A stretch of 64,000 nucleotides of DNA from an archaeon (GCA_043801165.1 JAZDMG010000028.1:10988-74987), one strand, 5' to 3'; positions 14,790 to 60,588 are shown, counted from the stretch's first letter. Numbers and translations: made by a program. Notes: generated by a model not told the origin, from the sequence alone.

Positions 14790-15314
14790 TTATCTCTCAG
14801 TGATTATCCTTTTGACGTCGTACTCTCCGCGCCCTGAAAAGAACATCCTCATCTTGACAAGCTCATAGAACTCATCAAGCCCATTAAGATAAGGGCTCCA
14901 TAACCTGATCTCAGAAATAGCATTTTGCGGATCATCAGACCTGTGAAGGACGTTGCGCACAGCCTTATCCTCAAGAGTGGCTATCTCCCTGGAATCATTG
15001 CTGAACCTATGCCTGACTGTGCGCGGCGCGGCAAGATTAGGAAAGGTGTTTCCGATTTCATCCATGAATTCCTGGATAATATTCTCTCCTTCATAAATAG
15101 CACCAACAACAGGCAGGCCAGTAAACTGCTTTAATAGCCTAGGATAATGGCTTTGTCCCAGATGCACGGCATAGTGCTTCTCGATAAGTTCCCTTGGAAC
15201 ATGGGCTATATAGCCATCCTTCACCCTCGTCCCGATCTTGTCCAGCTCGTAGAGCAGCTGGAATGCGAAAGGCACATGCTCTGGCTTCACCAAGATAAGA
15301 GTCTGTTCAATCAT
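14790..15314 (-). CDS. ndk: Nucleoside diphosphate kinase-like protein
   Basis: TLILVKPEHV resembles the NDK N-terminal strand. The region NVLHRSDDPQNAISEIRLW aligns to the NDK NIIHGSDS..A..EI..WF, with HRSD where HGSD is usual. Confidence 0.55.
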   Translation of the reverse strand: MIEQTLILVKPEHVPFAFQLLYELDKIGTRVKDGYIAHVPRELIEKHYAVHLGQSHYPRLLKQFTGLPVVGAIYEGENIIQEFMDEIGNTFPNLAAPRTVRHRFSNDSREIATLEDKAVRNVLHRSDDPQNAISEIRLWSPYLNGLDEFYELVKMRMFFSGRGEYDVKRIITER

Positions 15315-15478
15315 GACTCTGGAGTGGATGCATAATTTATAAATGTTTAGAAACTAGAGAAGGTCATGACATCATCGGCACAAAAATATCCACCAGAACT
15401 ATACCCGACGGAGATCTCATCTCATCCACGCAAATTATTCGCGCTACATAAACATGTAATGAAGCGATTAGAAAACTT

Positions 15479-16900: not shown

Positions 16901-16984
16901 GTATACCCTCGACTTGGAATATTCGGTTCGATTTCCAACCGATGTATATATTACTTCGTTCGAATGCCCCTGCTGGGATTTGAA

Positions 16985-17087
16985 CCCAGCTCCCAAGCTC
17001 CGCAAGCTCGTATACTATTTGCTTTAGCAGCAGTTCTCTGCCGTTATCCAAGCTATACTACAGGGGCTTATGTACAGCGTTAGCGTG
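16985..17087 (-). tRNA. Intron-containing tRNA of 103 nt, tentatively tRNA-Arg (anticodon GCG), with a non-canonical intron of about 28-31 nt in the D-loop region
   Basis: On the minus strand the acceptor is GCCCCUG/CAGGGGC plus A, the T-arm is CUGGG-UUCAAAU-CCCAG and the anticodon arm is CGAGC-UUGCGGA-GCUUG. GUAU occurs twice, as D-stem strands with G-U pairs, flanking about 39 nt that is D-loop plus intron. Confidence 0.55.
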
Positions 17088-35840: not shown

Positions 35841-36701
35841 TTATTTCGTTGCTGCATACTTGAAATTCACATCACGTTGTTCAGCTGGAAGTTGATACCC
35901 ACCGCATTCAAAGGGATAAGCAAGCACTCCGCTTGGAAAATCCGCATCAGGGCTATAGCATTTCCAGTAAAAGAATGAGCTTGGTTGGATCCAATGAAGA
36001 TAAGGATTTCCTTCTTTAACAGTCGGATTTATTGATGTATTTGATACTTTGAAACAAAAAGAAGCAAAAGTGTGTGTGCCAACACTGCCGGCATATCCAA
36101 TCAATTCTCCGCGTTTTACTGTAAATCCAATTAATGCTTTGCATGCAGATGCTTTGCCTTCTTTTGTTATGTAATCATCAAATGCAAAGAAAAGGTGTCC
36201 CTGAGCTTGGCTACTGTCATACAACTCTTCAGATTCACTACAATCTGGATTTTGATAGTGTCCAAGCAACAGTGGCGAGCTGTATAAATGATAAGTCTTA
36301 ATAATCATACCTGGCCAATCAGGACTGACAGACTCAAAGTATAACACCACATCATTAAATGGGGTGATTTTTTGTCCGTCTACAATCTTATATTCTGCAT
36401 TATTATTTTGAAAGCCTACTAATACCATATCAATAGGTGCAAGTAAAGGTGTTCCATGCGCTAGTTCGAATTCTATTCCACATTTAGTAGCATAAGGCTT
36501 CGAATATTTACTGCCACTTTTTGGGCCAAGCGTGATTATATTAGGGTCAGCATCGCCAGTATATGCTTCCGTATGCGTATTGATACCGACCATGCTGGAT
36601 GGCGGCGAGGTAATCACGGATGCACTCGTATTAGGCACTGGAATAGGTAGAGAAGGAGGGGTTTTGTTGAATATTTTTTCAAAAATTCTACTCGGATTCA
36701 C
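35841..36701 (-). CDS. LytM/M23-like peptidase-fold protein, possibly degenerate. The ORF starts at GTG. An upstream ATG (36765) with a signal anchor is in the +1 frame across an A10 tract
   Basis: LAHGTPLLAPIDMVLVG resembles the M23 block G.D...GTPV.A...G.V. VKRGELIGYAGSVGTHTF resembles the M23 block V..G..IG.VG.TG..TGPH. No HxH motif is seen. Removing one A from the A10 tract gives MKKKFIVLILILVFVIGIFYAVNPSRIFE in frame. Confidence 0.45.
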   Translation of the reverse strand: MNPSRIFEKIFNKTPPSLPIPVPNTSASVITSPPSSMVGINTHTEAYTGDADPNIITLGPKSGSKYSKPYATKCGIEFELAHGTPLLAPIDMVLVGFQNNNAEYKIVDGQKITPFNDVVLYFESVSPDWPGMIIKTYHLYSSPLLLGHYQNPDCSESEELYDSSQAQGHLFFAFDDYITKEGKASACKALIGFTVKRGELIGYAGSVGTHTFASFCFKVSNTSINPTVKEGNPYLHWIQPSSFFYWKCYSPDADFPSGVLAYPFECGGYQLPAEQRDVNFKYAATK

Positions 36702-37139
36702 GGCATAAAAGATGCCAATAACAAATACTAGAATTAGAATTAAAACTATGAATTTTTTTTTTCATAACATCTAACTTAATATTAGTGTTTATATATTTAC
36801 TTAAAAACGCGTAGTTTTATTTTAGACTTGGAATTCTTATTAGCCCCAATCTTTGACTTAAAAGTATAGTAGCCCCGCTCGGACTTTCGCCAGCCTTTTC
36901 TAAAAAAGGTTGTTTCGAACCGAGGTCCCAGGACATTCTCAGCCAGAACAGACGTCCACGGCTTCCAAAATCCCGGATGACTGGTCTAAAAACAGAGTTT
37001 TTGGACTTTCAAAAATCTCTGATTTTTGTTTGACCACTACACCACGGGGCTATAACGCAGATGTTGGAAGCTATGCTTTATAAATCTTTTTGGGCGAAAA
37101 ACAAAAAACTATAAATAAGCTCGGCCGTTTCTTTGGCAG

Positions 37140-39282: not shown

Positions 39283-40419
39283 TTGATGGGAGATAAGGTG
39301 GCATTGATGAGCAAAGTAAGATTAGTATCGATTTTTCTGATAATATTTTTATTGGCGGCTACAAACGCACTTGCGGTAAGCGTAGTGCTGAAATCGCCTT
39401 CAAACAACTCAAAGATATCAACATCAAGACAGGATTTCATCTTCAGCTTTGACAATTACCAGGACATCTTGAACTGCACGTTGTTCATTGACAGCCAGCC
39501 AAAGAGAGTCATGAACAGCCTCATCAAGGTTCAGGATAATAAGATAGCAACAGAACTTGAAGATGGGGAGCATGCATGGTTCATACGTTGCTACGATTCA
39601 AGCAGCCTTGAGATTAATTCTGAGAGCAGGGCGCTTACGGTCGGATTGACAATGATAACCAAAGAAGGCTATGAAACATTATACAATAACAACGGATTCA
39701 GGAGCTACCTGATAACACTTTTCCAAGGTCAGAAGCCAATAACCCTGCCGCCAATGAAAGGAGGTGAGGACATCAGGCTAAAGATCAATAGCGACATACA
39801 TTACATAGACGTCCTGAAGATGGGAGCCACGACCAACTCCAGTTTCGTGGAGATTAGAGACAGGAGCAATGAGAAGAAATACAGATTGCTACTGACTGAG
39901 AGCGTGAATCTTGATCTTGACAATGATAAAAAAATCGATGCAACCATCAAGATTGTTGATATCAAGAGAGGAGTCGACGCATACTTCATAGTTACGCCCT
40001 ACCCTGAGGGACAGGCTCAGATAACAACGCCGGAGACATCAGAACCGGCAACAGAAACAAATGTTTCTTCAGACCAAACCACAACAATCACACCAGATCA
40101 GGGCCAGGCAAATGAAGAGGAGACCGACAGCCAGGAGCCACAGCAGACAGAACAACCTGCGGAGCAATCCTCTGAAGATCTGGAGAACAGCACACCAGCA
40201 ATCATAATAGCAATTATCGTTGCGGCGATAATAATCGCGGCAGTGGTAATATTTTCCAGCCGCAAAAAATGTAAAAAACCTGGAAAGAAAGAAGGCCGAA
40301 AAACACAAGAGCACAAACCAGCTCCTGATCAAGAGCATGAAACCAATGCTCTTGAGAGCAAAAAAGACGAAGAAGAGAAGTTTGATATAATAAAAAGCGC
40401 AGGAAAGAGAAAAAGATGA
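39283..40419 (+). CDS. Secreted surface protein, paralogue A: signal peptide, conserved domain of about 90 aa, T/E/Q-rich linker and C-terminal TM anchor
   Basis: The signal reads IFLIIFLLAATNALA. The anchor reads AIIIAIIVAAIIIAAVVIF. The N-domain is homologous to the next gene. Confidence 0.45.
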   Translation: MMGDKVALMSKVRLVSIFLIIFLLAATNALAVSVVLKSPSNNSKISTSRQDFIFSFDNYQDILNCTLFIDSQPKRVMNSLIKVQDNKIATELEDGEHAWFIRCYDSSSLEINSESRALTVGLTMITKEGYETLYNNNGFRSYLITLFQGQKPITLPPMKGGEDIRLKINSDIHYIDVLKMGATTNSSFVEIRDRSNEKKYRLLLTESVNLDLDNDKKIDATIKIVDIKRGVDAYFIVTPYPEGQAQITTPETSEPATETNVSSDQTTTITPDQGQANEEETDSQEPQQTEQPAEQSSEDLENSTPAIIIAIIVAAIIIAAVVIFSSRKKCKKPGKKEGRKTQEHKPAPDQEHETNALESKKDEEEKFDIIKSAGKRKR

Positions 40420-41153
40420 AAAAAAGAACAAGAAACGAAGTTTTTTTCGTACTCGTTGTGCTGGGACTAATACTTCTACTGACCGACAGGGATATATCTG
40501 TGAATGGCAGGGCAATCCAGGACATACAAGGGATAACCCTTGTTTCACCATCAGATAACACCCAGACCAAGAACGGCAACATCTTCTTCACATTCAAATA
40601 CAATCCCGAGACTAGTATGAAGAGCTGTTCGTTGATGATTGATGAGAAACCGGCTCGGATCATGGATACATTGCTCTCAGCATACAGCACCAGGATGCAG
40701 GCAGAGTTGGCTCCTGGAGAATATCATTGGGGTATAGCATGCATAGACTCTGATGATTTTGAGATTAAATCAGAAAGAAGAAACATCATCATCCTGCCTG
40801 AGGGAGAAAATCCTATCCAAGTCGATTATTTCTTCAACAAGCCAGGGACGAAATATACTTTCGAGCTAAAAGAAAATTTGGACTTGAACCTTGAGAACCT
40901 GGTGCCAAACGACGTCATCATCGCAAAAAGAGACAAGAGCTCATACGAGACAACAGTGCTCAGGATCAACCAGGATTACTCAAAGGACACCGATTCGATC
41001 GAGCTCATGATAATGCCTGGCACAAAAAGGGTCAAGATTAACAGGGGCGAATCACTGAAGGTTGATTTCAACAACGACGGCCTTTCGGATGTCACCTTAA
41101 CGCTCGTGAAAGTCTCATATAAAAGAGCATTCTTGAACATCAGGACTGACTGA
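40416..41153 (+). CDS. Secreted protein, paralogue B of the upstream gene (4-nt overlap)
   Basis: The signal reads VFFVLVVLGLILLL. The shared pattern L.SPS.N.......F.F.......C.L.ID..P...M......EL..GE..W.I.C.DS...EI.SE.R is present. Confidence 0.45.
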   Translation: MKKRTRNEVFFVLVVLGLILLLTDRDISVNGRAIQDIQGITLVSPSDNTQTKNGNIFFTFKYNPETSMKSCSLMIDEKPARIMDTLLSAYSTRMQAELAPGEYHWGIACIDSDDFEIKSERRNIIILPEGENPIQVDYFFNKPGTKYTFELKENLDLNLENLVPNDVIIAKRDKSSYETTVLRINQDYSKDTDSIELMIMPGTKRVKINRGESLKVDFNNDGLSDVTLTLVKVSYKRAFLNIRTD

Positions 41154-41303
41154 AAAAATAAAGCTATATAAAGGAGCGATTGATTCTTCGAATAAAGCTG
41201 TATTATGGGGCTGTAGTATCACCCTTAGAACCTAATTCTGGCTTATACAAACAATGCAGTACAAATGCATTACAAAGTATAAAAATGCTGACCTCCACAC
41301 GGA

Positions 41304-41732
41304 ATGAGAGGAGGTTGGAAGATGATAGACCCATTTGAAAGGACGAGATATATCAAAAACATTGTGCAGATGATATATCCTAAAATATCTCATGAGGAGC
41401 TGAATACCTGCATTCAAAGGATAGCAAAGCACAAGTATAGGAAGCAGATGAAGCTGTCTGAGAAAGAGAGCGTCATATGTGATTTGCTGCTTCAACACCA
41501 GATAAAGCCAGCTACAGCGTATCTCTGGTACAAGGTCCGTAACCTTCCGGCTTATTTACAGCAAGAGATCAGAGACCGAAAGCTGAGCATGACAGAAGCT
41601 TTCCAGAAGAACCTTGAAAGCAACAAGCCAATCCAGGTGCTGGGTGAAGAGCTTGGCAAGGAGATCCAGGAATACGTGAATGAACTGGCCAAGAGAGACT
41701 TCTTGAGGGGTGATGACTATGCAATTCAATGA
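41304..41732 (+). CDS. Hypothetical protein upstream of and overlapping the integrase. Possibly an excisionase or regulator-like protein
   Basis: A 142-aa ORF that overlaps the integrase start by 23 nt. Confidence 0.3.
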   Translation: MRGGWKMIDPFERTRYIKNIVQMIYPKISHEELNTCIQRIAKHKYRKQMKLSEKESVICDLLLQHQIKPATAYLWYKVRNLPAYLQQEIRDRKLSMTEAFQKNLESNKPIQVLGEELGKEIQEYVNELAKRDFLRGDDYAIQ

Positions 41733-42651
41733 TCAGGCTCCTGAAGAGCTGTATTCTCAGATAAAAGACAATAAGATGTCTCAAAGGCAGAAAAGATTCA
41801 TCATACAAGCTTTGAAAGAGCAAGGTTTCAAGGTCAAGAAGCAGCAAAAGAAATGGGTCCAGAGAAATAGAGGTAAGCTTCCCTTCAAACCGTCTGACCT
41901 GCCAAGAATCTTTGAGAACATGGACAATCTTAACGTCAGAATGGCCTCATTGGTCGCCCTTGTGACCGGCACAAGGAGGGCTGAGACTGTTGAGATCCTA
42001 AAGAAGAACATTGACCTTGAAGAATGCCGGATTAGGCTTGAGATAACCAAGAAAGGAGTGCCCCAAGACGTCTACTTCCCACAGTCATTCGCGCCCCTCT
42101 TACGGAAATGGTGCCATTACACCAGGGATAGCCCTTTTTTGCTGCCTCACAGGCTAACACCTAACAAGCCCATATGCCTTGCCTCGCTCAATTCTGGGCT
42201 TTCTAAGGCCCTAAAAAAGGCAGGGATGGCAGAAGCCATGTACGTCAAGGAAAACGGGCATACGGTCCAGAAATACGGCTTTCATAGCTTCAGGAAGTTC
42301 TTCTGCAGTATGCTCGTCAACAACGGGGTAAAGCCAGAGGTGGCAAGGATCCTTATGAGGCACGAAAAGGTAGAGCTGACTTTGAAGGTTTACACCCACT
42401 TAGGCAGAAAGACCCTAAACCAGGCCATGGAAAGGATAGACCCAATGTCAAGTTTTGGACTCAAAGAACCAAGACAACAAGACACCCCAAAAACACCCCA
42501 AATAGGCCAACAATTCGCAAACCAGAGCATACTGCTCTTCAACGACTACAGGAATGGAAAGATAAACAAGGAGGAGTATGAACAGAGCAAACAGGAATTA
42601 ATAAGTTTACAAAAAGTGTTTGATAATCACACCAATAATGAAATTCAATAG
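41710..42651 (+). CDS. Tyrosine recombinase / phage-type integrase
   Basis: The C-terminal catalytic box HSFRKFFCSMLVNNGVKPEVARILMRHEKVELTLKVYTH gives the R..H..R..Y pattern. The N-terminal segment LVALVTGTRRAE is present. Confidence 0.8.
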   Translation: MMTMQFNDQAPEELYSQIKDNKMSQRQKRFIIQALKEQGFKVKKQQKKWVQRNRGKLPFKPSDLPRIFENMDNLNVRMASLVALVTGTRRAETVEILKKNIDLEECRIRLEITKKGVPQDVYFPQSFAPLLRKWCHYTRDSPFLLPHRLTPNKPICLASLNSGLSKALKKAGMAEAMYVKENGHTVQKYGFHSFRKFFCSMLVNNGVKPEVARILMRHEKVELTLKVYTHLGRKTLNQAMERIDPMSSFGLKEPRQQDTPKTPQIGQQFANQSILLFNDYRNGKINKEEYEQSKQELISLQKVFDNHTNNEIQ

Positions 42652-42659
42652 CGAATAGG

Positions 42660-43187
42660 TTAAAATTTATCTGGAAAAATAATTTTGTGATTATCAAATA
42701 ATGGATCCTTTGGAACATTCATAGCCTTGTACATCTCGCTTAATAAAAATATTATTGAGAAAGAAGCGACGAAAAAAGTGATTTGAGGGTATGCTGGTTT
42801 GTTGTCTTTTGAAAGTATATCACGCATTTTCTTATCAAGAGAGATATCGCCTAAAGTAAAAAACCTATCCATGGTTTTCTTAGGTATCGTGTCTTTTTTT
42901 ATAATACCGTGAGCAAAGTCATTTCTAATTTTATTTACCAGGATTATCCTATTATATAATGTTTTTCTATCTTCAAAAAAACCTAAAGAATCAAGGAGTC
43001 TAACTTTACTCATAAAAGATTTTAAATGTTCGTTCTCAAAAATCACTTTTGAATTTTTAAAATATTTTTCAATAATCTTATCAATCAAGTATTCTATATT
43101 CAAGTGAAGAAATAAAACATGAAGTCTAATATCATCAATTTTTCTCAACTCTGCAACAACATCAGTGTAATATGCCCTGAAATCCAT
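42660..43187 (-). CDS. HEPN-like (Abi / DUF4145-like) protein with Rx4H motif (RNDFAHG)
   Basis: NKIRNDFAHG matches the HEPN Rx4-6H signature. It is the second gene of a 2-gene minus-strand pair in an AT-rich island. Confidence 0.4.
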   Translation of the reverse strand: MDFRAYYTDVVAELRKIDDIRLHVLFLHLNIEYLIDKIIEKYFKNSKVIFENEHLKSFMSKVRLLDSLGFFEDRKTLYNRIILVNKIRNDFAHGIIKKDTIPKKTMDRFFTLGDISLDKKMRDILSKDNKPAYPQITFFVASFSIIFLLSEMYKAMNVPKDPLFDNHKIIFPDKF

Positions 43188-43200
43188 TCACAATCCCTCG

Positions 43201-43659
43201 CTATTGTTTTTCAAATTCGCGTATATACTCCTTAGTTCTCTTTAAAGTATATCTGGCAAGTTCCAAGCTTTTTTTTATTTCTTTGATATCTTCCTCGTGC
43301 TCAGGTAACAACTTTTGCAATTCTGACAAACTTCTTTCTGCCAGGATGTCATTAATTTTTATTTTCCAAAATAGGATGCCTTGCTTCCTTCTTTTTGCTG
43401 CTCTTTTCACAGATTGACTTAGTGAAGCTGCTGCTCTTTGCAGAGGGGCGGATTCAAATTGTTCAGTGGGTTGATAAATTATTCTTCCGTACTCATCTGC
43501 TGTGCAGATTAAAGAGCCGTTATTGACACATAAACTTTTAGTATCCCACTTCAAGTATTTTAGAGCTTTTGAAGGTACAGCGAGAGCATAACTGGCTTTA
43601 GAAGGGTCTTTATGTGGTTTGAATTGGAGTTTTAGTTTTCTTTTGTATAACTCGAACAT
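43201..43659 (-). CDS. Hypothetical protein, upstream partner of the HEPN-like gene (13-nt gap)
   Basis: A 152-aa ORF. The N-terminal region may form a beta-barrel-like DNA-binding fold (AbrB-like?). This is uncertain. Confidence 0.3.
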   Translation of the reverse strand: MFELYKRKLKLQFKPHKDPSKASYALAVPSKALKYLKWDTKSLCVNNGSLICTADEYGRIIYQPTEQFESAPLQRAAASLSQSVKRAAKRRKQGILFWKIKINDILAERSLSELQKLLPEHEEDIKEIKKSLELARYTLKRTKEYIREFEKQ

Positions 43660-43753
43660 AATATTAGGTAATACTAAGCCGTATATAAAATTTCCCTATC
43701 GGGAAGAAAAAAGTCCCGATTGCGATATAAACACGTAGTAATATCGGTTTATC

Positions 43754-43897
43754 ATGCAAGAGATAATAACCTTCAAAATCAGCAAAGAGATAAAAAAAGA
43801 AATTCTTCAGAGGGCAAAAGAAGAAGAAAGAAATCTTTCTGAGCTCTGTCGATTATTAATAAAAAATCATCTCAGAGATAAAAATGGCAAAAAGTAG
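43754..43897 (+). CDS. Small ribbon-helix-helix (CopG-like) protein of about 47 aa. It is not in the ORF track
   Basis: MQEIITFKISKEIKKEILQRAKEEERNLSELCRLLIKNHLRDKNGKK gives a beta-strand then two helices. It overlaps the next ORF by 14 nt. Confidence 0.4.
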   Translation: MQEIITFKISKEIKKEILQRAKEEERNLSELCRLLIKNHLRDKNGKK

Positions 43898-44078
43898 AAC
43901 TATACAATTTCGATGTACAAAATCTCAGTTCGAGCGCATTCAGAATAAGAAGGAGGCTTTAGGTTATACTAAACTTTCTGATTTTCTTAGGGATTTGACC
44001 CTAAAAGACGAATTAGCATCATATTCTCTCATCAGAGAGATACACCAACGAGTGGTGGGAGGTAACAACAAGGGTTGA
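43884..44078 (+). CDS. Second small RHH-like protein
   Basis: IQFRCTKSQFERIQNKKEALGYTKLSDFLRDL gives an RHH pattern. Confidence 0.4.
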   Translation: MAKSRTIQFRCTKSQFERIQNKKEALGYTKLSDFLRDLTLKDELASYSLIREIHQRVVGGNNKG

Positions 44079-44273
44079 TAAGTTTTGAGAGGGATTGATA
44101 ACGGCCAGGTTTCAATGGGTCGTTATCATCCTTCTTTTATAAATTTTGTACTGAATTTGATTTGAGCCTATTAGGAGGCTATTGAATAATTTGTTGAGTT
44201 TAGGTTTTTCATGAAATCTAAACTAAATCAAACATGACTGTAAGAAACGAATTGAAAATTAGGAGGAGGTATT

Positions 44274-44594
44274 ATGAAGAATAACAGCGATCGAATAGTA
44301 TCAGTAAATCTCAGCCATAAGGCCATGTACGGGTTGATCCATGCAGGCATTATTGATGGCAGGGATAAGAACGTAAGAGAAGGTTCCGATATCAGCTTAT
44401 CAAGGTTTATAAGCGACTTGGTGGAGAGATATGTAACTGATAATGTCAAGGAGGCTCTCATTAATTACTATCAAGTCCGAATTGAGGAAGGGAATAACCG
44501 GCAGGAGGATATTGCCAATCAGAACAGACAATTTGCTGAAAAAATTAAGAAAATCAAAGAGAAATCAAGGGAGGACGATGATGAGCACAGATAA
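44274..44594 (+). CDS. Hypothetical protein on the island
   Basis: A 106-aa ORF with a charged C-terminus. Confidence 0.3.
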   Translation: MKNNSDRIVSVNLSHKAMYGLIHAGIIDGRDKNVREGSDISLSRFISDLVERYVTDNVKEALINYYQVRIEEGNNRQEDIANQNRQFAEKIKKIKEKSREDDDEHR

Positions 44595-45051
44595 ACAAGT
44601 TGAGGCTAATAGGAAGAACGCTCAAAAAAGCACCGGGCCTGAAGATTGCGATAGGTCCAAGTATAACGCAGTCAAATATGGCTTGACATCAATCAGTCAT
44701 TTTTCAAAAGAGGAAGAATCAACCATAAATGACATATACAACGATTTAGGTCAAATACTCACACCTAAAGATAAGCTTCAAGAGTTTCTCTTGGGCAGAA
44801 TGGCGCTGTATATGTGGCGGCTTCAGAAATCATCTCAAATTGAACAAAAACAGTTCAAGAACTCATTAATAGATTCACAGAATAAACAGGGCAATAAAGA
44901 TAAACAATTCATTCAGGAAATTCAAGGGCGTAAACCTAATATAACTGGTGAGAATATAGACACCAATATTGACTTGATTATGAGATATGAATCTACCAAT
45001 GAGAACAGATTGATTAGGCTTGTTAAGTTCTTCAAAGAGCTACAAACATAA
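44443..45051 (+). CDS. Hypothetical protein. The likely start is ATG 44578 (MMSTDKQ)
   Basis: An ORF whose upstream part overlaps the previous gene. Confidence 0.3.
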   Translation: MSRRLSLITIKSELRKGITGRRILPIRTDNLLKKLRKSKRNQGRTMMSTDKQVEANRKNAQKSTGPEDCDRSKYNAVKYGLTSISHFSKEEESTINDIYNDLGQILTPKDKLQEFLLGRMALYMWRLQKSSQIEQKQFKNSLIDSQNKQGNKDKQFIQEIQGRKPNITGENIDTNIDLIMRYESTNENRLIRLVKFFKELQT

Positions 45052-45298
45052 AATTGGCTTCGTTTAGCAAAAAAACCATCAAAAACGGTTAAAGAGAAGA
45101 CCAAATAAGGGCACTTACAAGCAACGTATAAGCTCGAGACAAGCACGAGGATTTCATAAAAAACCTGACAAACTGGACACTTGAAAAGGGGCACCAAAAC
45201 ATAGCTTAGGACAGTGACTGCGTTTCACAAAAACATGCTTGTTTTAATCTACTCACTCAAAATTTTGCATTATTAACGATCAATAGTGCCATTCCGTC

Positions 45299-45592
45299 TT
45301 AGTTCCCTTCTTGTGTTTCTCTTGCTTTCCAGTAGCATTCTTCGTAGTTTGTTGCTTTGTTTTCGAATAAGCATTTTTCTTGTGTTTCTTGGAAGTCTTC
45401 TGCGTTTATTAACTCATCTACACAGTACATTAGCGTAGCGTTGACTTTTGTCAGCTCATCTTTTGTTCTCCTCGTTTCTTTGTCGGTTAATAACACAAAT
45501 CCTACAAGAAGCAAAATCCCTACTGCAAATGCAATACTTAGTGCTTTCCAGTTGATTCCTTTTGCTTTCATCATTATCGACCCCCATACCAT
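45299..45592 (-). CDS. Small membrane protein with one TM
   Basis: The TM reads WKALSIAFAVGILLLVGFVLLT. Confidence 0.3.
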   Translation of the reverse strand: MVWGSIMMKAKGINWKALSIAFAVGILLLVGFVLLTDKETRRTKDELTKVNATLMYCVDELINAEDFQETQEKCLFENKATNYEECYWKARETQEGN

Positions 45593-45628
45593 AGAACTTA
45601 ATCATAGTTTTTAAATTTTCTTATGTTG

Positions 45629-47866
45629 CTACTTAAAGTCTTGCGTGGCGACATAGTAAAGCCCATCATAAGCCACACCCACGCCGATAACATCGTATTG
45701 TGGGTTCAAAATGTTACTTCTGTGCCCGGGGCTATCCATCCAGGAAGAAACTTGGGCGCGAGCTATGCTGTCCGGGTTAGAAGAAACATACCCTATGCCT
45801 TGGACGTTGCCTGTTGGCATTTTTCCTATGTTTTCGGCAACACCGATTGAATAAGATCCTCCTCCCAGAGATTTGTAAGCGTTATAACCGGCCCTGGCGG
45901 CTCTGGCACTCGGATCCTCGCCTTTCAGATTGGTATGTGCAAAGAAGTCATTCTCAACCATGTCCAGGCTGTGTGCTCTGGCTATATCTGCTAATTTATC
46001 ATCCCATGTTAAGGCTCTTAAACCTTGGCTTTTTCTTTCTGCGTTGGTGTATTCAAAAATGGCCTGTTCAACCTCTTTTGTTCTGTTAGAAACAGGCTGC
46101 GGAGGCGCTGTTATCTCTTCAAATGTCGTCTTCACTGCTTCGGAGCCGCTTTTAGCGATCTCAGAAACGTCATCAGCAATTTTAGATCCTTTTTCCTTTA
46201 GCTTCATCTCTTTTATTCCTGTAGAAATAGAATCAAAGAATGATGAAATCCCAATCCAAACCTTATCTAAAGAGAAGTTCCCCTTTTTAGGCTCATCTTT
46301 AAGCACTTCTTCAACAGATTCTTCCTTCGGGATCAATGTTATCTCTCTCGTTACGGTTGTGGTCTGCTTTTCGGCTGGCACAATCTCAGAAACAGTTAAT
46401 TCAACCCCGGGATATTTCCTGCTTAACACGCCAGTTATCTTGTAAACGTCTTTGGTGGTTCCTTTCTTGACGAACAATGCCTTTTGTTCTTGAGTAAGCA
46501 TTCTCAAAGGGATGCTCCTCCCAACATCATCTACTACAGAATCAACATATACGCCTCCTTGTTTAGTTCCTTCGATATCATTTTGGAGATAACCTTTCAA
46601 AATGACCTCTTTCTTATCGTATTCAGCCCAATTTACAAGGTATTCCCTCAAAGAAATCTCAACAGGAACCGCCTCCGTAATGGTTGTTCTTGTAGGCTCT
46701 TGCTTGGTATCGTTAGTTGAAACGGCATCCTGTGTCTTTGGCTGCATTAAAAAGACTATCAGAACGGCAACAGCTATGAGAACTAAAACAATTATAAGCG
46801 AGGTGAGTGCTGCTTTTAGCAGATTCGTATAATTCCGCGATCTTTTCTTAATCGGTTCTGATGCAGTCTGTTCTTGGTTAGCTTGGACTCCTTTTTCTGA
46901 TTCGCATTCGGTCTTCAATTGATATGATTCAGTGATTTTCTCTGGAATACCATAAAGTTTTGAACATCTGTGTTCCTCTGCGCGTTTGTGTTCTTCACAG
47001 AAATGTTCGTGACAATATCGGCATTCATAGGAGTGTTTTTTTAAGTCTTTATTGCAGGAATAGCATTTTTTCAGAATGGCCACGGGTTTCTTATCGTAAG
47101 TTATAAGCTCAGATTTCTTCACCTTGCCTTGCTTGACAGGATTACTCTCTCTTTCAATTGTCGGATACTTTGTAAGATCAATTGTTATTTGACGTTTCGA
47201 ATTATCAAGAATTTTGCCGAGGTTTTTTGAATATCTTTCGCTTTCTTCTTTTTTTTCAATTTGAAGTTTAAGGGCGTACTCTGTACAAGGATGGCCTCCT
47301 TTGTCTTCATCATTCAATCGATCTATTGCAGAAGGGTTATTGAAGTTTCTGAGGTAAGGATGTTTAGCTCTTACATGCTCTTCGCAAAAGAACAACTTGC
47401 AGTAGGGACATTGATGAAGAACTCTCCTTTTACGGCATCGAGCGTCATTACACTTAGAGCGGTCATCTCTATACGGATGTTCTGGCTTGGTTTTCTCTTC
47501 CTTAACATTTCCACCCCCGTGATATACGCCGCCAGGAGGTCTCCATATACGTTGACTTGTTGTTTCCATCTCGTTATAGAACGCAGTTGAATGATTATTT
47601 TCAAAGAGGTGCATGGTCTCATGAATGGCAGTTTCCCTGATCTCTTCGTTGCTTAACCTTTGTAAAATAGCCTTCCTGATACAGATAATGCCTAAATGAA
47701 CATGTATATGAGCTACTTGATCATTGCCGCCAAAAGGACAATCACCATCCCAAAACTCCACACGAGGAGGTTCTAAACCCCTGCTCTTTGAAGCTTCCGC
47801 AACATACTTCAGGAACAAGACTTGTTTATCGCTCATAATACGTCCAATGAATTCCCGACTATCCAT
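45629..47866 (-). CDS. Multidomain membrane protein: N-terminal zincin-like metalloprotease motif (HETMHLFENNH), two AN1-type zinc fingers, one TM helix, an extracellular linker and a C-terminal CAP/SCP (PR-1-like) domain
   Basis: The motif is HExxHx5H. The AN1 pattern Cx2Cx10Cx2Cx4Cx2Hx5HxC occurs twice. The TM reads LIIVLVLIAVAVLIVFLM. The CAP blocks HTN, GENI and GHRSNIL...IGVGVAYDG are present. Confidence 0.5.
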   Translation of the reverse strand: MDSREFIGRIMSDKQVLFLKYVAEASKSRGLEPPRVEFWDGDCPFGGNDQVAHIHVHLGIICIRKAILQRLSNEEIRETAIHETMHLFENNHSTAFYNEMETTSQRIWRPPGGVYHGGGNVKEEKTKPEHPYRDDRSKCNDARCRKRRVLHQCPYCKLFFCEEHVRAKHPYLRNFNNPSAIDRLNDEDKGGHPCTEYALKLQIEKKEESERYSKNLGKILDNSKRQITIDLTKYPTIERESNPVKQGKVKKSELITYDKKPVAILKKCYSCNKDLKKHSYECRYCHEHFCEEHKRAEEHRCSKLYGIPEKITESYQLKTECESEKGVQANQEQTASEPIKKRSRNYTNLLKAALTSLIIVLVLIAVAVLIVFLMQPKTQDAVSTNDTKQEPTRTTITEAVPVEISLREYLVNWAEYDKKEVILKGYLQNDIEGTKQGGVYVDSVVDDVGRSIPLRMLTQEQKALFVKKGTTKDVYKITGVLSRKYPGVELTVSEIVPAEKQTTTVTREITLIPKEESVEEVLKDEPKKGNFSLDKVWIGISSFFDSISTGIKEMKLKEKGSKIADDVSEIAKSGSEAVKTTFEEITAPPQPVSNRTKEVEQAIFEYTNAERKSQGLRALTWDDKLADIARAHSLDMVENDFFAHTNLKGEDPSARAARAGYNAYKSLGGGSYSIGVAENIGKMPTGNVQGIGYVSSNPDSIARAQVSSWMDSPGHRSNILNPQYDVIGVGVAYDGLYYVATQDFK

Positions 47867-47898
47867 CTTAAATCAATCCCTCAAATCAATTACCCGAT

Positions 47899-48210
47899 TC
47901 ATCGCATCTTATAAGGTATCCTCTTCTTCTCCAATAATATTTTCCTTATTTTCTGGCGAATCCAATGACCACGATAAGTCCATGGTTTATATGTAACATG
48001 ACTGGAATCAATAGCAATCCTGACGAGTTCGTTTTTTGTTGGAGCGCGACCATATTTTCGCTCGAATTTGCTGATCAACCTATTGAAGTCCCTGTTAGCT
48101 CTGACAATCATGCTCCGGGGGAGAAGAGGCTTTTTAGGTCTTGGAAATAACAGACTTCTTATCCAAAAAAATATTCCTCTAAGAAAACCTTTTCTACGGT
48201 AGCGTCTCAT
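47899..48210 (-). CDS. Small basic hypothetical protein
   Basis: A 103-aa R/K-rich ORF. Confidence 0.3.
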   Translation of the reverse strand: MRRYRRKGFLRGIFFWIRSLLFPRPKKPLLPRSMIVRANRDFNRLISKFERKYGRAPTKNELVRIAIDSSHVTYKPWTYRGHWIRQKIRKILLEKKRIPYKMR

Positions 48211-48296
48211 GTTTTACTAACAGCACCCCCTAAAAGCGCAGAAGTCTTTTTTAGCTTATAAACATTAGCAAAAAAACTAAGAAAACAAAAAATTCT

Positions 48297-48509
48297 CTAC
48301 GGTTGTTTGGCAGTTTGTATCGCGTATAAAACCAACACCAGAGCTAATGCTCCCCCAAGCTTTTCATAATTAAGATTTATATTAAATACGATAGATATAA
48401 AGATAATAAAGAAAAATATTGAGAGTATCAAAAGAACAGTCTTTATTCTCTTTTTCCTCAACCAGCTCTCATCTCGTTCTATTCCCTTCTTACTTCGGCT
48501 CATAATCAA
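48297..48509 (-). CDS. Small membrane protein
   Basis: 70 aa with one TM. Confidence 0.25.
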   Translation of the reverse strand: MIMSRSKKGIERDESWLRKKRIKTVLLILSIFFFIIFISIVFNINLNYEKLGGALALVLVLYAIQTAKQP

Positions 48510-48585
48510 ATAAGTATATGAGCCTGCTTAATAAAGTTTATTACTGGGAAAAGAATTAAATATTAGCTTAGAGTATCTCAAATAA

Positions 48586-49101
48586 ATGAGCAAAAAAGGC
48601 ATAAGATTCAAAGCTAAATACGAAAACAGAATTGCAGAAGAATGTGAAATTAAAGAAACACGAGATGGTTCTAAAATTATCATTCCAAAGAAGGAAAATA
48701 GTGACGGACTTCATGCATCATTACACCCTTCAGGAATTTTTAATCTTAGCTCTGGCAAAAGTTATGTCTATGATTTTCTTAACAACCCGAAATTAAAAGA
48801 ATTCGTTGAAAAAAGAGTAAACGATCTTGAAAAGATTGATTGTCCTATCTTTGCCATCATTTTAGATTTAAGAGATATTAAAAAATATGCATCTATAAAG
48901 GACAACGAGCACATCGTTGATTTTGATGCCTATTTCATGGAATCAGAACAAGTAGAAATCCAAAATGATGATTTTAGTTTTGTTTTGAAATATAATGAAC
49001 CATTCTATGAAATAATTGTATTTGATGAGGAATTAAATGCATTTTATGCTGCGAAGAACAAACCAGGTTATGGCATGCCTTTAAATCCAAAAAAAGATTA
49101 A
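48586..49101 (+). CDS. Hypothetical protein
   Basis: A 171-aa ORF in an AT-rich segment. Confidence 0.35.
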   Translation: MSKKGIRFKAKYENRIAEECEIKETRDGSKIIIPKKENSDGLHASLHPSGIFNLSSGKSYVYDFLNNPKLKEFVEKRVNDLEKIDCPIFAIILDLRDIKKYASIKDNEHIVDFDAYFMESEQVEIQNDDFSFVLKYNEPFYEIIVFDEELNAFYAAKNKPGYGMPLNPKKD

Positions 49102-49177
49102 CTGTAGCGTGGAGAACCGATTGAATCTAACCAGGCCATGTAATTGAGCTTATCAGTATTACGAGAAACAACGAAGT

Positions 49178-49513
49178 TTATTTAGGCCCTTTCGGTAAGA
49201 AGTATCCAAATAACCAGAGAATCGTTAAGATAGCACCCATAAGGATAAACGGATGCCCGGAGAGTTTTCCAGCGAGCCAAGAAATCCAGTTTATCTCAGT
49301 CGGCACAACGTTATCAACTATGTAACCCGTGGTTCTATCCAGATTCTCATCTGACTTATTAGGATTGCCAAAATCAACACTATTGATAAATATAATGGCT
49401 CCGATGCCAGCTATCACTGCTACAATAGTCAGAAAGATTGTTGGTATATCCTCAATCCAGTCCATAAGATTAGGTGATGGGATATTCATACTTAAAGATA
49501 TCGGGAGCACCAA
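49178..49513 (-). CDS. Small membrane protein with 3 TM segments
   Basis: The hydrophobicity pattern supports this. Confidence 0.3.
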   Translation of the reverse strand: MVLPISLSMNIPSPNLMDWIEDIPTIFLTIVAVIAGIGAIIFINSVDFGNPNKSDENLDRTTGYIVDNVVPTEINWISWLAGKLSGHPFILMGAILTILWLFGYFLPKGPK

Positions 49514-49684
49514 TGATATGAATTGTACCTTAAAACCCTGTCCAACCTACAAACGATAAAGTTTTAAAAGAGTACTATCCTCTTGAGGCTTAGAATACTG
49601 TGTGGAGTTAGCCAAAAGCGCTTATTTCAGCTGATTTAGGCGCTGTAAGGCCGGGATTAGGAAAATACTGTCCACAGTACATTT

Positions 49685-49758
49685 GGGGCTGTAGTGTAGC
49701 TTGGCTATCACTGGCGCTTGGGGTGTGTCCAACCGGAGTTCAAATCTTCGCAGCCCCA
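49685..49758 (+). tRNA. tRNA-Pro (anticodon GGG), tentative
   Basis: The acceptor is GGGGCUG/CAGCCCC plus A. The D-arm is GUGU..UCAC. The anticodon arm is GGCGC-UUGGGGU-GUGUC with two G-U pairs. The variable loop has 4 nt. The T-arm is CGGAG-UUCAAAU-CUUCG. Confidence 0.6.
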
Positions 49759-49926
49759 CTTAATCTTTTTGCCAAGGCAAAAACATTAATGAAAAAACTA
49801 GTGCAGGACTTTCGCCTATCGGCGAAGTCCTGCTCCTCATGTGCTACCGAGCAGCAGACTGCGAGTGTAGTGCCTTTCCCTCAAGGCTTTCATAAAGGCT
49901 TGGTTTACATCTTCGCAGCCCCACTT
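49744..49926. repeat. Direct repeat of the tRNA-Pro 3' end (ATCTTCGCAGCCCCACTT at 49744-49761 and 49909-49926). A 14-bp-stem hairpin (49803-49833) lies between the copies
   Basis: The 18-nt copies are identical. Both are followed by T-runs. Confidence 0.7.
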
Positions 49927-54619: not shown

Positions 54620-55453
54620 TCACAACAGATCAAGCGGGCTGACAACCCCTTTAATGTTCTCCTTTGATACGCGGGTGTATATCTGGGTGGTCTGAAGGTT
54701 AGAATGGCCCAGTAATTCCTGGATGACTCTTATGCTGACGCCTGCTTCAAGAAGGTGCGTCGCAAAACTGTGCCTGAGCTTGTGCGGAGTTACCCTCTTC
54801 TTTATGCCTGCTCTCTTGCCGGCGGCAGAGACAATCTTCTGGACATTCCGTGCAGATAGGGCCCTGCCCTGCTTATTGCTAAAAATCAGCCCGGATGATA
54901 TCTTCTCCTTGGAAGAATATCTCTTAAACGATTCAATCAGCTCCTTAGATAACAAGGTTATCCTGTCTTTTTTTCCCTTTCCTTGGCGGACAATGCACAG
55001 GTTTTCACCAAAATCAATATCCTCAGTCTTAAGATTAATGCACTCGCTGATCCTAAGCCCTGCAGAATACATGAATTCAATTAAAAGACGGCTCTTAGGG
55101 TTGAGACAAGCGTCAAGAAGGGCTTTGATCTCTGGCTTTGACAGGACTGGAGGGAATTTGCGATGTATCTTCGGAGTTTTAATCGCGGAAAAGCCTCTCC
55201 TAAGGATCTGGTTATAGAAAAAAAGGAGAGATGACCTGACCAATGCCACCGAACTTGGAGATAGCTTCCTATCGGCGATTAGATAGGCCAGATAACTCTT
55301 TATATCATCTTCATCAACCAAGGCAGATTCTTTCTTTATATAGACAAGAAAACGAGCGTTATGGCTCATATAAGCCTTTACAGTCTCCTGGCTGAACCCT
55401 CGTATCTTCAGTTCAGTCTCTAGCTTCTTCAGCTCGCTTTCAGGCATATCCAT
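54620..55453 (-). CDS. xerA: Tyrosine recombinase XerA/XerC/XerD-like
   Basis: The C-terminal box HKLRHSFATHLLEAGVSIRVIQELLGHSNLQTTQIYTRV is present. The N-terminal SAM-like core-binding domain is present. The protein is 277 aa. Confidence 0.8.
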   Translation of the reverse strand: MDMPESELKKLETELKIRGFSQETVKAYMSHNARFLVYIKKESALVDEDDIKSYLAYLIADRKLSPSSVALVRSSLLFFYNQILRRGFSAIKTPKIHRKFPPVLSKPEIKALLDACLNPKSRLLIEFMYSAGLRISECINLKTEDIDFGENLCIVRQGKGKKDRITLLSKELIESFKRYSSKEKISSGLIFSNKQGRALSARNVQKIVSAAGKRAGIKKRVTPHKLRHSFATHLLEAGVSIRVIQELLGHSNLQTTQIYTRVSKENIKGVVSPLDLL

Positions 55454-58748: not shown

Positions 58749-59657
58749 ATGACTGAAAATCTGATGCCGCCGGAAAGTGAAACACCAAAAGGAGTCTCAT
58801 TCAACGAGTTCATACACCATGCGATCATTGAGACTATCAGACTGCTCGAGACCGCTGAAGCGAAGATGAGCAATAATGATGCCAAGAAGATACTGAAAAC
58901 GTATATCGAACACGCAAGGAAAAAGTTGGCAGAAGAACATGGAAAGACACGTGTTGTCCAGCCTCCCAAAACAGCACCTGAAAAGGATAAGACACCTGGC
59001 GGTTCTGAGCCGGTTCCACTCCCAAAAGTGGTCCCTATAACTGAAGAGGCTAGAAAAGAAATAGCTAATGCTGTTAGGTACGTTGAAGATATACTGGCTA
59101 AGCTAAGCGTTCAGAAGGAAGCATTGATCACAAAAAAAATACCAGGTTCATCTGCACTCGGCTGGCTTGACGCTGATGTTGCTGTGAAGATTCTCGAGAA
59201 TCTTGCCTTGATTAAAAATAAGCTAAAGGAAAAGCCGCGGATTATTAGAAGTGATGGGACTACAGACCAATTCGAGAATTTCGTAGGAAATGAAGCGATG
59301 CTAATCTACCTATTGATGGTGCTCGCAATTCACAAAGGCAAGGTCGATAATATACCTCCGGCTTTCAGAGAAGAAAATCAATTCGAACAAGCACGCGGCA
59401 TGTTTGGCGATGCGAGATACGCCGCATTAGTTTCAATGCGAATCGATGAAGCAAAATCAATACTTGACGCCTTCATTCAACGTCTTCAGGACAGGATTGA
59501 TAGGACAAGAAAGCAGCTCAATATTATTGTAGCTAATCCTAGAAGTGGTTATAGAACTAAGAAAAAAATCAAAGCGAAGGATATCAAACAAATGAAAAGT
59601 GTAAAAGTAGTAAAAAAGTTGGAAATAAAGGATTTGAAGGCTAAAAAGAATAAATAA
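58749..59657 (+). CDS. Hypothetical protein (operon gene 2)
   Basis: A 302-aa ORF that lies 5 nt after the previous stop. Confidence 0.35.
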   Translation: MTENLMPPESETPKGVSFNEFIHHAIIETIRLLETAEAKMSNNDAKKILKTYIEHARKKLAEEHGKTRVVQPPKTAPEKDKTPGGSEPVPLPKVVPITEEARKEIANAVRYVEDILAKLSVQKEALITKKIPGSSALGWLDADVAVKILENLALIKNKLKEKPRIIRSDGTTDQFENFVGNEAMLIYLLMVLAIHKGKVDNIPPAFREENQFEQARGMFGDARYAALVSMRIDEAKSILDAFIQRLQDRIDRTRKQLNIIVANPRSGYRTKKKIKAKDIKQMKSVKVVKKLEIKDLKAKKNK

Positions 59658-59691
59658 CTTGCGATTGAATTATTTAAGGAAGGTGATTTAA

Positions 59692-60588
59692 ATGACAGGA
59701 CGAGCAACTCTTGCTTATAGGGAACTCAAGTTTAGATTAAAAATCCAGAACTTCATTGGAAACATAGACAGGAATGGTATCCGCGTAGCACATAACAAAA
59801 TTGCAAAATTAGATAAATTTATCGAAAAATATGGAAAGATAGCTATTGATCTTGATAAACAGGTTAAGAATCTAGCTGCTGAGGGAGTGGAGAAAGATTT
59901 TATTCAATTGAACAAAATATACCGCGATGAGTTCCAGATCGTGGACGAAGCGTTCATATCAATCATACTTACTCTCAGGAGAGAGTTTATCAGGCTGAAA
60001 AAAATTCATCAACTGGAAAAGAATAAGGAGACTAAAGACAAAGAAGAAGAGATAATGATGGAATTCACGAAGTTGAATGATGTGTTTGCTAATATGCAAC
60101 AATTTGACTCATTCACACCTCAGTTTTCGGATGTAATCACCAAACTCAAGGAGACTGAACATAGACTTAACATGATGAATGGCCAGATCGAGGCAAGAAA
60201 GATATTCAAAGAAGAAAAGAAAGTGAAAAAGGATGAAAAAAAGGAATTAAGAGCCAGTAATCCTAAAAAGGTTAATAAAGCTGTGGAAATAGAAAAAGCT
60301 GATCTCGGAAAGCTCGGGAATGACCTTTCAGGATACTTGAAATTTATCCGTGATTCACTCAATATCTTGATAAGATTTATGCAGATGGAATGGGACAAAC
60401 ATGAGAAAGACCTCAGGGGTTTCCTTACGCTACTTGACCAGGGAGAAGGCCATGCAAAGTATCCCCTCCCGTATTATAACATCATAAAGAAGGAATACGA
60501 AAAAACAGAAACAAAGGTCAAGGAATCTAAAGAAGATATTACTGATGCATTAAGGGCACTGACCCAGAGCATAATACGAAGCAGGTGA
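59692..60588 (+). CDS. Hypothetical coiled-coil protein (operon gene 3)
   Basis: 298 aa, K/E-rich. Confidence 0.35.
   Translation: MTGRATLAYRELKFRLKIQNFIGNIDRNGIRVAHNKIAKLDKFIEKYGKIAIDLDKQVKNLAAEGVEKDFIQLNKIYRDEFQIVDEAFISIILTLRREFIRLKKIHQLEKNKETKDKEEEIMMEFTKLNDVFANMQQFDSFTPQFSDVITKLKETEHRLNMMNGQIEARKIFKEEKKVKKDEKKELRASNPKKVNKAVEIEKADLGKLGNDLSGYLKFIRDSLNILIRFMQMEWDKHEKDLRGFLTLLDQGEGHAKYPLPYYNIIKKEYEKTETKVKESKEDITDALRALTQSIIRSR

Follow-up and report, generated by a model that had tools for sequence, protein, structure and literature searches.

An 8.5-kb element most likely integrated at the 5' end of a tRNA-Pro gene in a DPANN archaeon

Results

The DNA analysed here is a stretch of 64,000 nucleotides from an archaeon (GCA_043801165.1 JAZDMG010000028.1:10988-74987, one strand; called the window below), in which an intact tRNA-Pro(GGG) gene is preceded, some 8.5 kb upstream, by a second copy of its own first nucleotides. 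The locus between and around the two copies is laid out as a left attachment site, attL (host promoter, core, left arm), a gene for a helix-turn-helix (HTH)-like protein, a tyrosine integrase gene, a set of cargo genes and a right attachment site, attR (right arm, core, rest of the tRNA gene). We conclude, with a probability of about 0.87, that positions 41207-49684 constitute an 8478-bp integrative element of a DPANN archaeon of the Woesearchaeota/Nanoarchaeia type, whose attP site recombined with the 5' end of the tRNA-Pro gene.

The 11-mer GGGGCTGTAGT, which makes up positions 1-11 of the tRNA, has two exact copies in the window (41207-41217 and 49685-49695), so that direct repeats flank the element and one of the two falls within the intact tRNA gene. 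When one mismatch is allowed the window contains three matches, as compared to 0.42 expected by chance. Together with the preceding T the block of identity comprises 12 nt, TGGGGCTGTAGT (tRNA positions -1 to 11), and it is within this block that the crossover took place. An earlier sequence-only reading of the locus had seen the tRNA copy at 41197-41212, as a gapped match of 11+5 nt. An exact copy does exist, yet it was placed 10 nt too far to the left, and the attL core is an ungapped block of 11-12 nt. The ATCAC that formed the shorter part of the proposed repeat was considered as a tRNA remnant and rejected, because it sits in the element's own arm, where the attP of relatives has ATGGC, ATAGC or ATGCC at the aligned position; its match to the tRNA is probably due to chance. 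The same reading was right in placing the intact tRNA gene about 8.5 kb to the right of the copy, as located by ARAGORN and Rfam, and in recognizing a small gene and a tyrosine integrase gene to the right of the copy, the start of the former being 105 nt away (41322 by homologue alignment). It had also described the interval as AT-rich, and indeed the GC content is 38.3% in 41207-49684 versus 45.3% in the remaining window, which has no other stretch of such size with a GC content as low. Further low-GC stretches (36-40%) occur at 15001-17000, for example around a 508-amino acid open reading frame (ORF) on the minus strand (15479-17005), at 36001-37000 and at 59001-60000.

The genes flanking the element allow the site to be compared with its counterparts in other genomes. 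The host-side Rad50 has 50-59% identity to proteins encoded in DPANN metagenome-assembled genomes (MAGs) of the Woesearchaeota/Nanoarchaeia type, and the order Rad50-p378-p245-tRNA-Pro-(p237)-p484 recurs, without the 8.5-kb insert, in 11 or more MAGs of the Woesearchaeota type, all of them distant relatives at this level of Rad50 identity rather than sister strains. Rad50, p378, p245, p484, p208, p188 and p277 are syntenic in loci L004-L015, L024 and L032, and the gap from p245 to p484 measures 0.4-2.1 kb in the relatives as opposed to 9.7 kb in the window. The ORFs of 41304-49513 have no match in the syntenic loci of the relatives, while blastn finds the tRNA-Pro 5' end GGGGCTGTAGTGTAGCTTGG between p245 and p484 in 11 loci, mostly in genes interrupted by introns, one of which (L005) is confirmed as a tRNA-Pro gene by Rfam. 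Since the tRNA 5' end is present and the element ORFs are absent, the syntenic site in the relatives holds the tRNA-Pro gene alone, and the search for an empty site in related genomes suggested by the earlier reading was thus successful. The opposite possibility, that the tRNA is not syntenic, had been raised by the failure of ARAGORN to detect a tRNA near Rad50 in the relatives and was rejected in view of the intron-bearing genes found by blastn and Rfam. An exact-sequence look-up of the window's flanking proteins and integrase returned no further contig.

Several features of the site in the relatives are worth recording for themselves. The syntenic tRNA-Pro genes (L013 6167-6293, L011 4806-4930, L006 14521-14626, and those of L007, L014, L015, L004, L005, L012, L032 and L024) mostly contain introns, many of them 49-55 nt long and located in the D-loop at the non-canonical position 20/21, others at or near the anticodon loop. 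ARAGORN missed all of the intron-bearing genes and Rfam at its gathering threshold found a single one; some of the relatives carry the anticodon CGG instead of GGG. The two genes between Rad50 and attL (39283-40419 and 40416-41153) encode paralogous secreted or membrane proteins with 21-33% identity in reciprocal tblastn, and this tandem pair is kept in all close relatives.

Integration at the 5' end of a tRNA gene predicts that the chromosome runs from the tRNA promoter through the core into foreign DNA, and this is the order met at the left junction. The window reads AAAGCTATATAAAGG at 41158-41176, which is 34 nt ahead of the left-hand core copy; a box (A)AGCTATATAAAG is present 24-37 nt upstream of tRNA-Pro in eight of the relatives' loci (L024, L006, L007, L015, L004, L005, L032 and L013), and L024 shares an exact 14-nt blastn match with the 41158-41176 region. 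Judged by this comparison, the DNA to the left of the attL core is the TATA-box promoter of the tRNA-Pro gene itself. The segment that directly adjoins the core on its left (41191-41211, AATAAAGCTGTATTATGGGGC) shares 81% identity with the TATA-box region located 34 nt further upstream (41157-41177, AATAAAGCTATATAAAGGAGC), a likeness that may reflect a small local promoter duplication or chance.

The most direct evidence comes from relatives of the integrase. Five related integrase loci are readable (L001, CAZABB010000006.1; L002, Ga0129284_10000187; L003; L083; L084), among six homologues with 49-58% identity to the integrase of the element, and in each of the five a core-like motif (TGGGCCTGTAGT, TGCCGCTGTAGT, TGCCTCTGTAGT or TGGGCCTGTTGA) stands upstream of the small gene. 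Profiles of the arms, covering about 170 nt to the left and about 110 nt to the right of this motif with the motif itself excluded, were run against both strands of the whole 64-kb window. The left-arm profile gave a single significant match, at 49530-49676 (E=1.6e-8), which ends just before the tRNA, and the best match of the right-arm profile fell at 41236-41295 (E=1e-3), just after the upstream core. A synthetic attP, in which 49510-49695 was joined to 41218-41330, aligns end to end with the five relatives and shares with them the CTGTCCA/TATCCAA repeats, a GGCTTAAAAAG block, the TACAAA repeats, a TATA-like box and the ribosome-binding site. In the element these features are divided between a left arm, in which TACAAA recurs and a TATAAAAA box and, before the small gene, a GGAGGT ribosome-binding site are found, and a right arm, in which CTGTCCA recurs alongside a conserved TTAAAAAG-like box. 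The attP derived in this way consists of 49530-49695 followed by 41218-41321, with the junction CCACAGTACATTTGGGGCTGTAGTATCACCCTTAGAACC, and the corresponding attB of 41150-41217 followed by 49696-49760, with the junction AATAAAGCTGTATTATGGGGCTGTAGTGTAGCTTGGCTATCAC. Alignment of the two junctions, which the earlier reading had proposed for defining attL and attR, accordingly places one attP half beside each copy of the repeat. On these alignments attL and attR are two halves of one attP, which is uninterrupted in the five relatives and split here at the tRNA 5' end; as each half abuts one core copy, this is direct comparative evidence for site-specific integration. A scan of three of these loci, L001-L003, detected no tRNA gene closer than 10 kb to the integrase. 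A scan for sigma-70 promoters and terminators performed no better than on shuffled sequences, the sigma-70 model being unsuited to an archaeon.

Taken together, site-specific integration is backed by three independent tests, namely the empty sites, the promoter at attL and the split attP. The tRNA gene has been reconstituted in the process and separated from its native promoter.

The integrase (Table 1) is intact. Its catalytic R, K, HxxR, H and Y residues are invariant in an alignment of seven homologues, and a conserved helical tail of about 80 amino acids forms its C-terminus. Pfam detects no SAM-like N-terminal domain in the protein, and its profile aligns with XerA (PDB 4a8e, E=6e-6) from XerA residue 55 onward. 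The ORF is uninterrupted and the att core (41206-41217) lies outside of it, which sets the element apart from the suicidal SSV/pTN3 type; the arrangement is the classical, non-suicidal one, in which the integrase gene stays whole after integration. Relatives of the integrase in plasmid and phage collections are generic integrases with no more than 29% identity, and two metagenome scans, one based on the integrase alignment and the other on the back-translated pattern YGFHSFRKFFCS, gave no matches. The window encodes a second tyrosine recombinase (54620-55453, minus strand), which has a full SAM-like N-terminal domain (PF00589, E=1.9e-50; PF13495, E=1.8e-16) and is syntenic and 67% identical in L013. 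This protein is a predicted host resolvase of the XerA type, situated outside any element.

The 136-amino acid partner encoded directly upstream of the integrase is 43-56% identical to the product of the gene upstream of every related integrase. Its family is small (52 cluster representatives among 1.84 billion), is made up of stand-alone proteins, and bears a weak resemblance to HTH proteins of the ParB/Noc type: the family profile matches Noc/ParB structures in the PDB weakly (E=0.02-0.3), and PF17762 matches 3 of 45 family members, again weakly (best E=1.6e-4). The AlphaFold model of the partner (pLDDT 53) is too poor for a fold search. We also considered that the partner might supply the integrase's missing core-binding domain and found no support for this, the family profile showing weak similarity to the ParB-type HTH. 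The members of the family all end in DFLRGG(D/E)YA. In the window (41722-41732), L001, L003, L083 and L084 the last 14 nt of the partner gene are shared with the integrase gene, which is read in the +1 frame; in L002 the called overlap is 20 nt. The overlap probably serves translational coupling.

Two further small genes encode ribbon-helix-helix (RHH) proteins. The 64-amino acid protein matches the NikA/MobA-like family above the cut-off and has homologues beside the integrase or attP in L001, L002, L083, L084 and L085. The other, a CopG-like protein of 47 amino acids, has an RHH_1 match (E=1.4e-3) that falls just under the cut-off. The module of partner, integrase and NikA/MobA-like RHH protein is all that the element shares with its relatives, the remaining cargo being variable. 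As to the RHH genes claimed in the earlier reading, the 64-amino acid protein bears the assignment out (PF21983) and the 47-amino acid protein comes close to it, but the 106-amino acid ORF at 44274-44594 has no family match.

Table 1. Features of the element and its junctions, with window coordinates
Feature	Position	Strand	Support
Native tRNA-Pro promoter (predicted), chromosomal side of attL; TATA box TATATAAA at 41165-41172	41158-41176	+	
attL core TGGGGCTGTAGT, copy of tRNA-Pro -1 to 11	41206-41217	+	exact repeat search
Left arm of element (P' arm of attP)	41218-41321	+	profile match; relatives' alignments
136-aa conserved partner, candidate ParB/Noc-type HTH	41322-41732	+	homologue alignment, weak HTH matches
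Tyrosine integrase, 310 aa, intact; open frame from 41710	41719-42651	+	PF00589 E=1e-19; phrog_1 integrase E=5.8e-29
175-aa orphan, candidate HEPN-like, RNDFAH motif	42660-43187	-	weak profile matches
152-aa orphan adjoining the HEPN-like gene	43201-43659	-	no family match
47-aa CopG-like RHH ORF, below ORF-list size, overlapping start of next gene	43754-43897	+	RHH_1 E=1.4e-3; phrog_7325 E=8e-4
64-aa NikA/MobA-like RHH	43884-44078	+	PF21983 E=3.7e-7, above cut-off
106-aa orphan	44274-44594	+	no family match
157-aa orphan; ORF open from 44443	44578-45051	+	no family match, no IMG/VR relative
97-aa orphan, one predicted membrane helix	45299-45592	-	no family match
745-aa cargo protein	45629-47866	-	CAP PF00188 E=2.8e-21; PDB 4ifa SCP E=1.2e-11
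103-aa basic orphan	47899-48210	-	no family match
70-aa orphan, two hydrophobic helices	48297-48509	-	
171-aa orphan	48586-49101	+	no family match, no IMG/VR relative
111-aa membrane orphan, last gene of element	49178-49513	-	
Right arm of element (P arm of attP), directly upstream of tRNA	49530-49683	+	profile match; relatives' alignments
attR core TGGGGCTGTAGT, start of reconstituted tRNA	49684-49695	+	exact repeat search
tRNA-Pro(GGG), intact, intron-less, integration target	49685-49759	+	ARAGORN; Rfam RF00005, 44 bits

The remaining cargo consists mostly of ORFs in which family searches, in keeping with the sequence-only reading, recognize no family. That reading had moreover named a HEPN-like module and a membrane protein combining zincin, AN1 and CAP parts. 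As for the first, the 175-amino acid orphan does contain the RNDFAH motif, and the profile matches are weak, with PADLOC CARF_HEPN at E=1.4e-4 and Pfam HEPN pEK499_p136 at E=0.073, the latter below the cut-off; phrog_5483, a family of unknown function, matches at E=3e-8. The protein is predicted to be all helical, no homologues and no PDB match were found for it, and its AlphaFold2 model (pLDDT 42) is too poor to search with. Judging by adjacency, the neighboring 152-amino acid orphan may be its partner. The 745-amino acid protein comprises, from the N- to the C-terminus, an HExxH motif, one or more AN1-type zinc fingers, one membrane helix and a CAP/SCP domain. Of the three proposed parts CAP is firm and AN1 is moderately supported (zf-AN1, E=2.9e-5, below the cut-off; PDB AN1 structure 1wg2, E=3.5e-4), but the zincin amounts to the HExxH motif and a sub-threshold YgjP-like match (E=3.2e-4). 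In plasmid and phage collections the matches of the protein are limited to its CAP domain.

At its 3' end the tRNA-Pro gene presents a second repeat. Its last 22 nt together with the following 2 nt (GTTCAAATCTTCGCAGCCCCACTT, 49738-49761) recur 165 nt downstream at 49903-49926, with 22 of 24 positions identical and both mismatches breaking the T-loop consensus, and the T-run expected of the native tRNA terminator comes after this copy. The 141-nt spacer (49762-49902) has an unusually stable predicted fold (z=-4.3) with a perfect 13-bp hairpin and no second copy in the window or in the loci fetched; the gap from the tRNA to p237 measures 64 nt in L005 and 222 nt in the window. The spacer has the look of a remnant, 141 nt in length, left by a separate integration at the 3' end, in which case, given the element at the 5' end, this tRNA-Pro gene would have been hit at both ends.

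Discussion

How would the element have reached its present position, and at what cost to the tRNA gene? We envisage that its own tyrosine integrase catalyzed recombination between attP and the tRNA gene, and that the 136-amino acid partner and the NikA-like RHH protein bind the repeated arm motifs, where they might act as accessory or directionality factors or as regulators. Transcription of the tRNA would now depend on sequence in the right arm of the element, and the displaced tRNA promoter would now point into the HTH-integrase operon. More tentatively, and with somewhat more doubt than confidence, we propose that attP, the ParB-HTH-like partner, an integrase devoid of the N-terminal domain and the NikA-like RHH protein define an undescribed family of DPANN plasmid integration systems, which is non-suicidal, targets the first 12 or so nt of tRNA genes and exchanges their promoter. 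If this were true, the differing cores of the relatives, GGGCCTGTAGT, GCCGCTGTAGT and GCCTCTGTAGT, should each match a tRNA 5' end in their own host.

Several observations weigh against the integrative element as we describe it. The core is short (12 nt). Neither an excised or circular form nor a sibling of the same strain with an intact attB was found, and viral contigs scanned for the predicted attP junction yielded no match. No replication, partition or transfer gene is recognizable in the 8.5 kb, which leaves autonomy unsupported; ORF family searches in 41207-49684 detected no VirB4/HerA-type transfer ATPase, the NikA-like RHH protein being the only hint of this kind. The roles assigned to the small protein and the RHH protein derive solely from weak HTH similarity and conservation. 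Finally, the TATA-like box that is conserved in the left attP arm of the relatives, the counterpart of the element's right arm, is degenerate in the window (TGTAAG), which may affect expression of the tRNA.

But what kind of element is it? The neighborhoods of its relatives contain HerA/DUF87 ATPases (L001, L002 and L003 all carry DUF87/HerA-like ATPases), RadC, SpoVG, DUF2958, ArdA, Abi_C, restriction-modification systems and a 1907-amino acid DEAD+MZB helicase with a Dcm methylase, and no housekeeping genes across about 20 kb. Judged from this gene content, the relatives look like plasmid-like elements loaded with defence genes. For this reason we regard the element of the window as a small, possibly reduced, cryptic integrative element that is probably derived from a plasmid rather than a virus, and that would be related to larger attP-bearing elements with HerA-type ATPases and defence genes. 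Two of the relatives (L003 568-8692 and L083 1420-8679) carry the same cargo immediately to the left of attP, composed of the 1907-amino acid DEAD/Helicase_C/MZB protein, a Dcm-type cytosine methylase and an Mrr- or Vsr-type nuclease gene, which looks like a defence island riding on a plasmid-like element.

Alternatively, the element may be an immobile fossil, what remains after decay of a larger plasmid-like element that integrated once and has lost the capacity to excise or replicate. The element is far smaller than its relatives, whose related neighborhoods reach more than 10 kb to either side, it is devoid of their HerA-type ATPase and of a recognizable replication gene, the conserved TATA-like box of its right arm has degenerated, and the apparent 141-nt scar of a second integration into this tRNA gene is an example of decay at the locus. 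Yet neither the integrase nor its partner is truncated, all catalytic residues are in place, the two cores are identical in 12 of 12 nt, both arms are still found by profile and the strong GC contrast suggests a recent arrival, so that we consider a fossil unlikely.

The sequence-only reading had also offered a provirus, and an unrecognized small archaeal virus of the membrane-vesicle or spindle type, with the orphan membrane proteins and the 745-amino acid protein as virion components, would agree with the size of 8.5 kb, with the membrane helices of five ORFs and with the one large exposed protein, which could be a spike. Structural proteins of small archaeal viruses often escape sequence detection. 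Nevertheless, no virion genes were recognized: PHROG searches over the element returned the integrase, a CopG-like protein, a CAP 'moron' and one family of unknown function, without a structural, packaging or replication match, even if divergent virion proteins could have escaped, and IMG/VR contributed one weak partial match to the integrase and none to p745, p171 or p202. The search of viral and plasmid databases that had been proposed thus yielded no useful relatives in IMG/VR or in phage and plasmid collections. Moreover, the relatives that share the att-HTH-integrase-RHH arrangement are large and plasmid-like (HerA/DUF87, ArdA, restriction-modification), and the RHH protein is of the NikA/MobA mobilization type. 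We therefore hold a provirus to be improbable. That no integration took place at all, the 11-nt repeat having arisen by chance in native lineage-specific DNA, can be dismissed, since the shortness of the repeat, the distance of the nearest relatives and the want of a strain-level empty site are outweighed by the 11 or more genomes without insert at the syntenic site, the tRNA promoter left of attL, the attP halves that each abut a repeat copy (E=1.6e-8), the adjacent integrase and the drop in GC across the interval.

DPANN mobile elements are poorly catalogued and few of their att sites have been defined by experiment or comparison. The integrative element described here yields an exact attL and attR as well as an inferred attP and attB with their arm motifs for a new integrase lineage, and it clearly exemplifies, for archaea, an integrase with an unsplit gene that targets the 5' end of a tRNA. 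As the tRNA has been disconnected from its promoter, its later expression becomes a testable question. Furthermore, restriction-modification, Abi, ArdA and DEAD+MZB helicase genes are found on attP-bearing relatives of the element, so that this integration module may also serve to spread genes for defence and anti-defence between these small-genome symbionts.

Comparison with known systems

Archaeal tyrosine integrases commonly enter tRNA genes, usually in the 3' part, use of the 5' part being 'considerably less frequent' (PMC6563490). In gene arrangement, the sole basis of this likeness, the element resembles the classical archaeal elements of the pNOB8 type, in which the integrase gene remains intact beside one att site, the tRNA target is reconstituted and the cargo is variable. 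It differs from them in that integration is into the extreme tRNA 5' end rather than the 3' part, that the core is only 12 nt long, that Pfam finds no SAM-like N-terminal domain in the integrase and that an overlapping gene for a 136-amino acid HTH-like protein always precedes the integrase gene.

The pTN3-like integrases of Thermococcales are described as the only archaeal ones whose attB is the 5' half of a tRNA gene (PMC8371274), and this 2021 review ascribes 5'-tRNA targeting with a promoter swap in archaea to these suicidal integrases alone. Common to both systems is that the 5' side of the tRNA is targeted and that the tRNA is cut from its own promoter and transcribed from element sequence, which for the element described here remains a prediction. 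However, the suicidal pTN3 type has its att site within the integrase ORF and relies on the integrase promoter for transcription of the tRNA, whereas here att is about 500 nt upstream of an unsplit integrase gene, which is located at the end opposite the tRNA.

The cryptic integrated elements of Thaumarchaeota, which mostly target tRNA genes, have att sites of 8-26 bp with a median of 17, and all but one of the tRNA integrations in that survey are at the 3' side (PMC6563490). They are likewise small, with a short att and the integrase as the sole recognizable gene, and are suspected to be unknown plasmids or viruses, but the element of the window has a DPANN host and an integrase of a different family.

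The closest solved structure is that of XerA of Pyrococcus abyssi (PDB 4a8e), whose catalytic domain can be aligned with that of the integrase at the E value given above. XerA functions as a chromosome-dimer resolvase and has a complete N-terminal domain, of which the element integrase matches nothing before residue 55.

Bacterial integrative elements with reversed target orientation, that is, with integration at the tRNA 5' end, were reportedly described by Zhao and Williams in 2002 (cited in PMC6563490). By analogy, these too would supply the tRNA 5' end and its upstream region and displace the native promoter, and they would differ in being bacterial and in having unrelated integrases. Set beside these systems the element is fairly ordinary, and it is notable mainly for its use of the rarely used tRNA 5' end.

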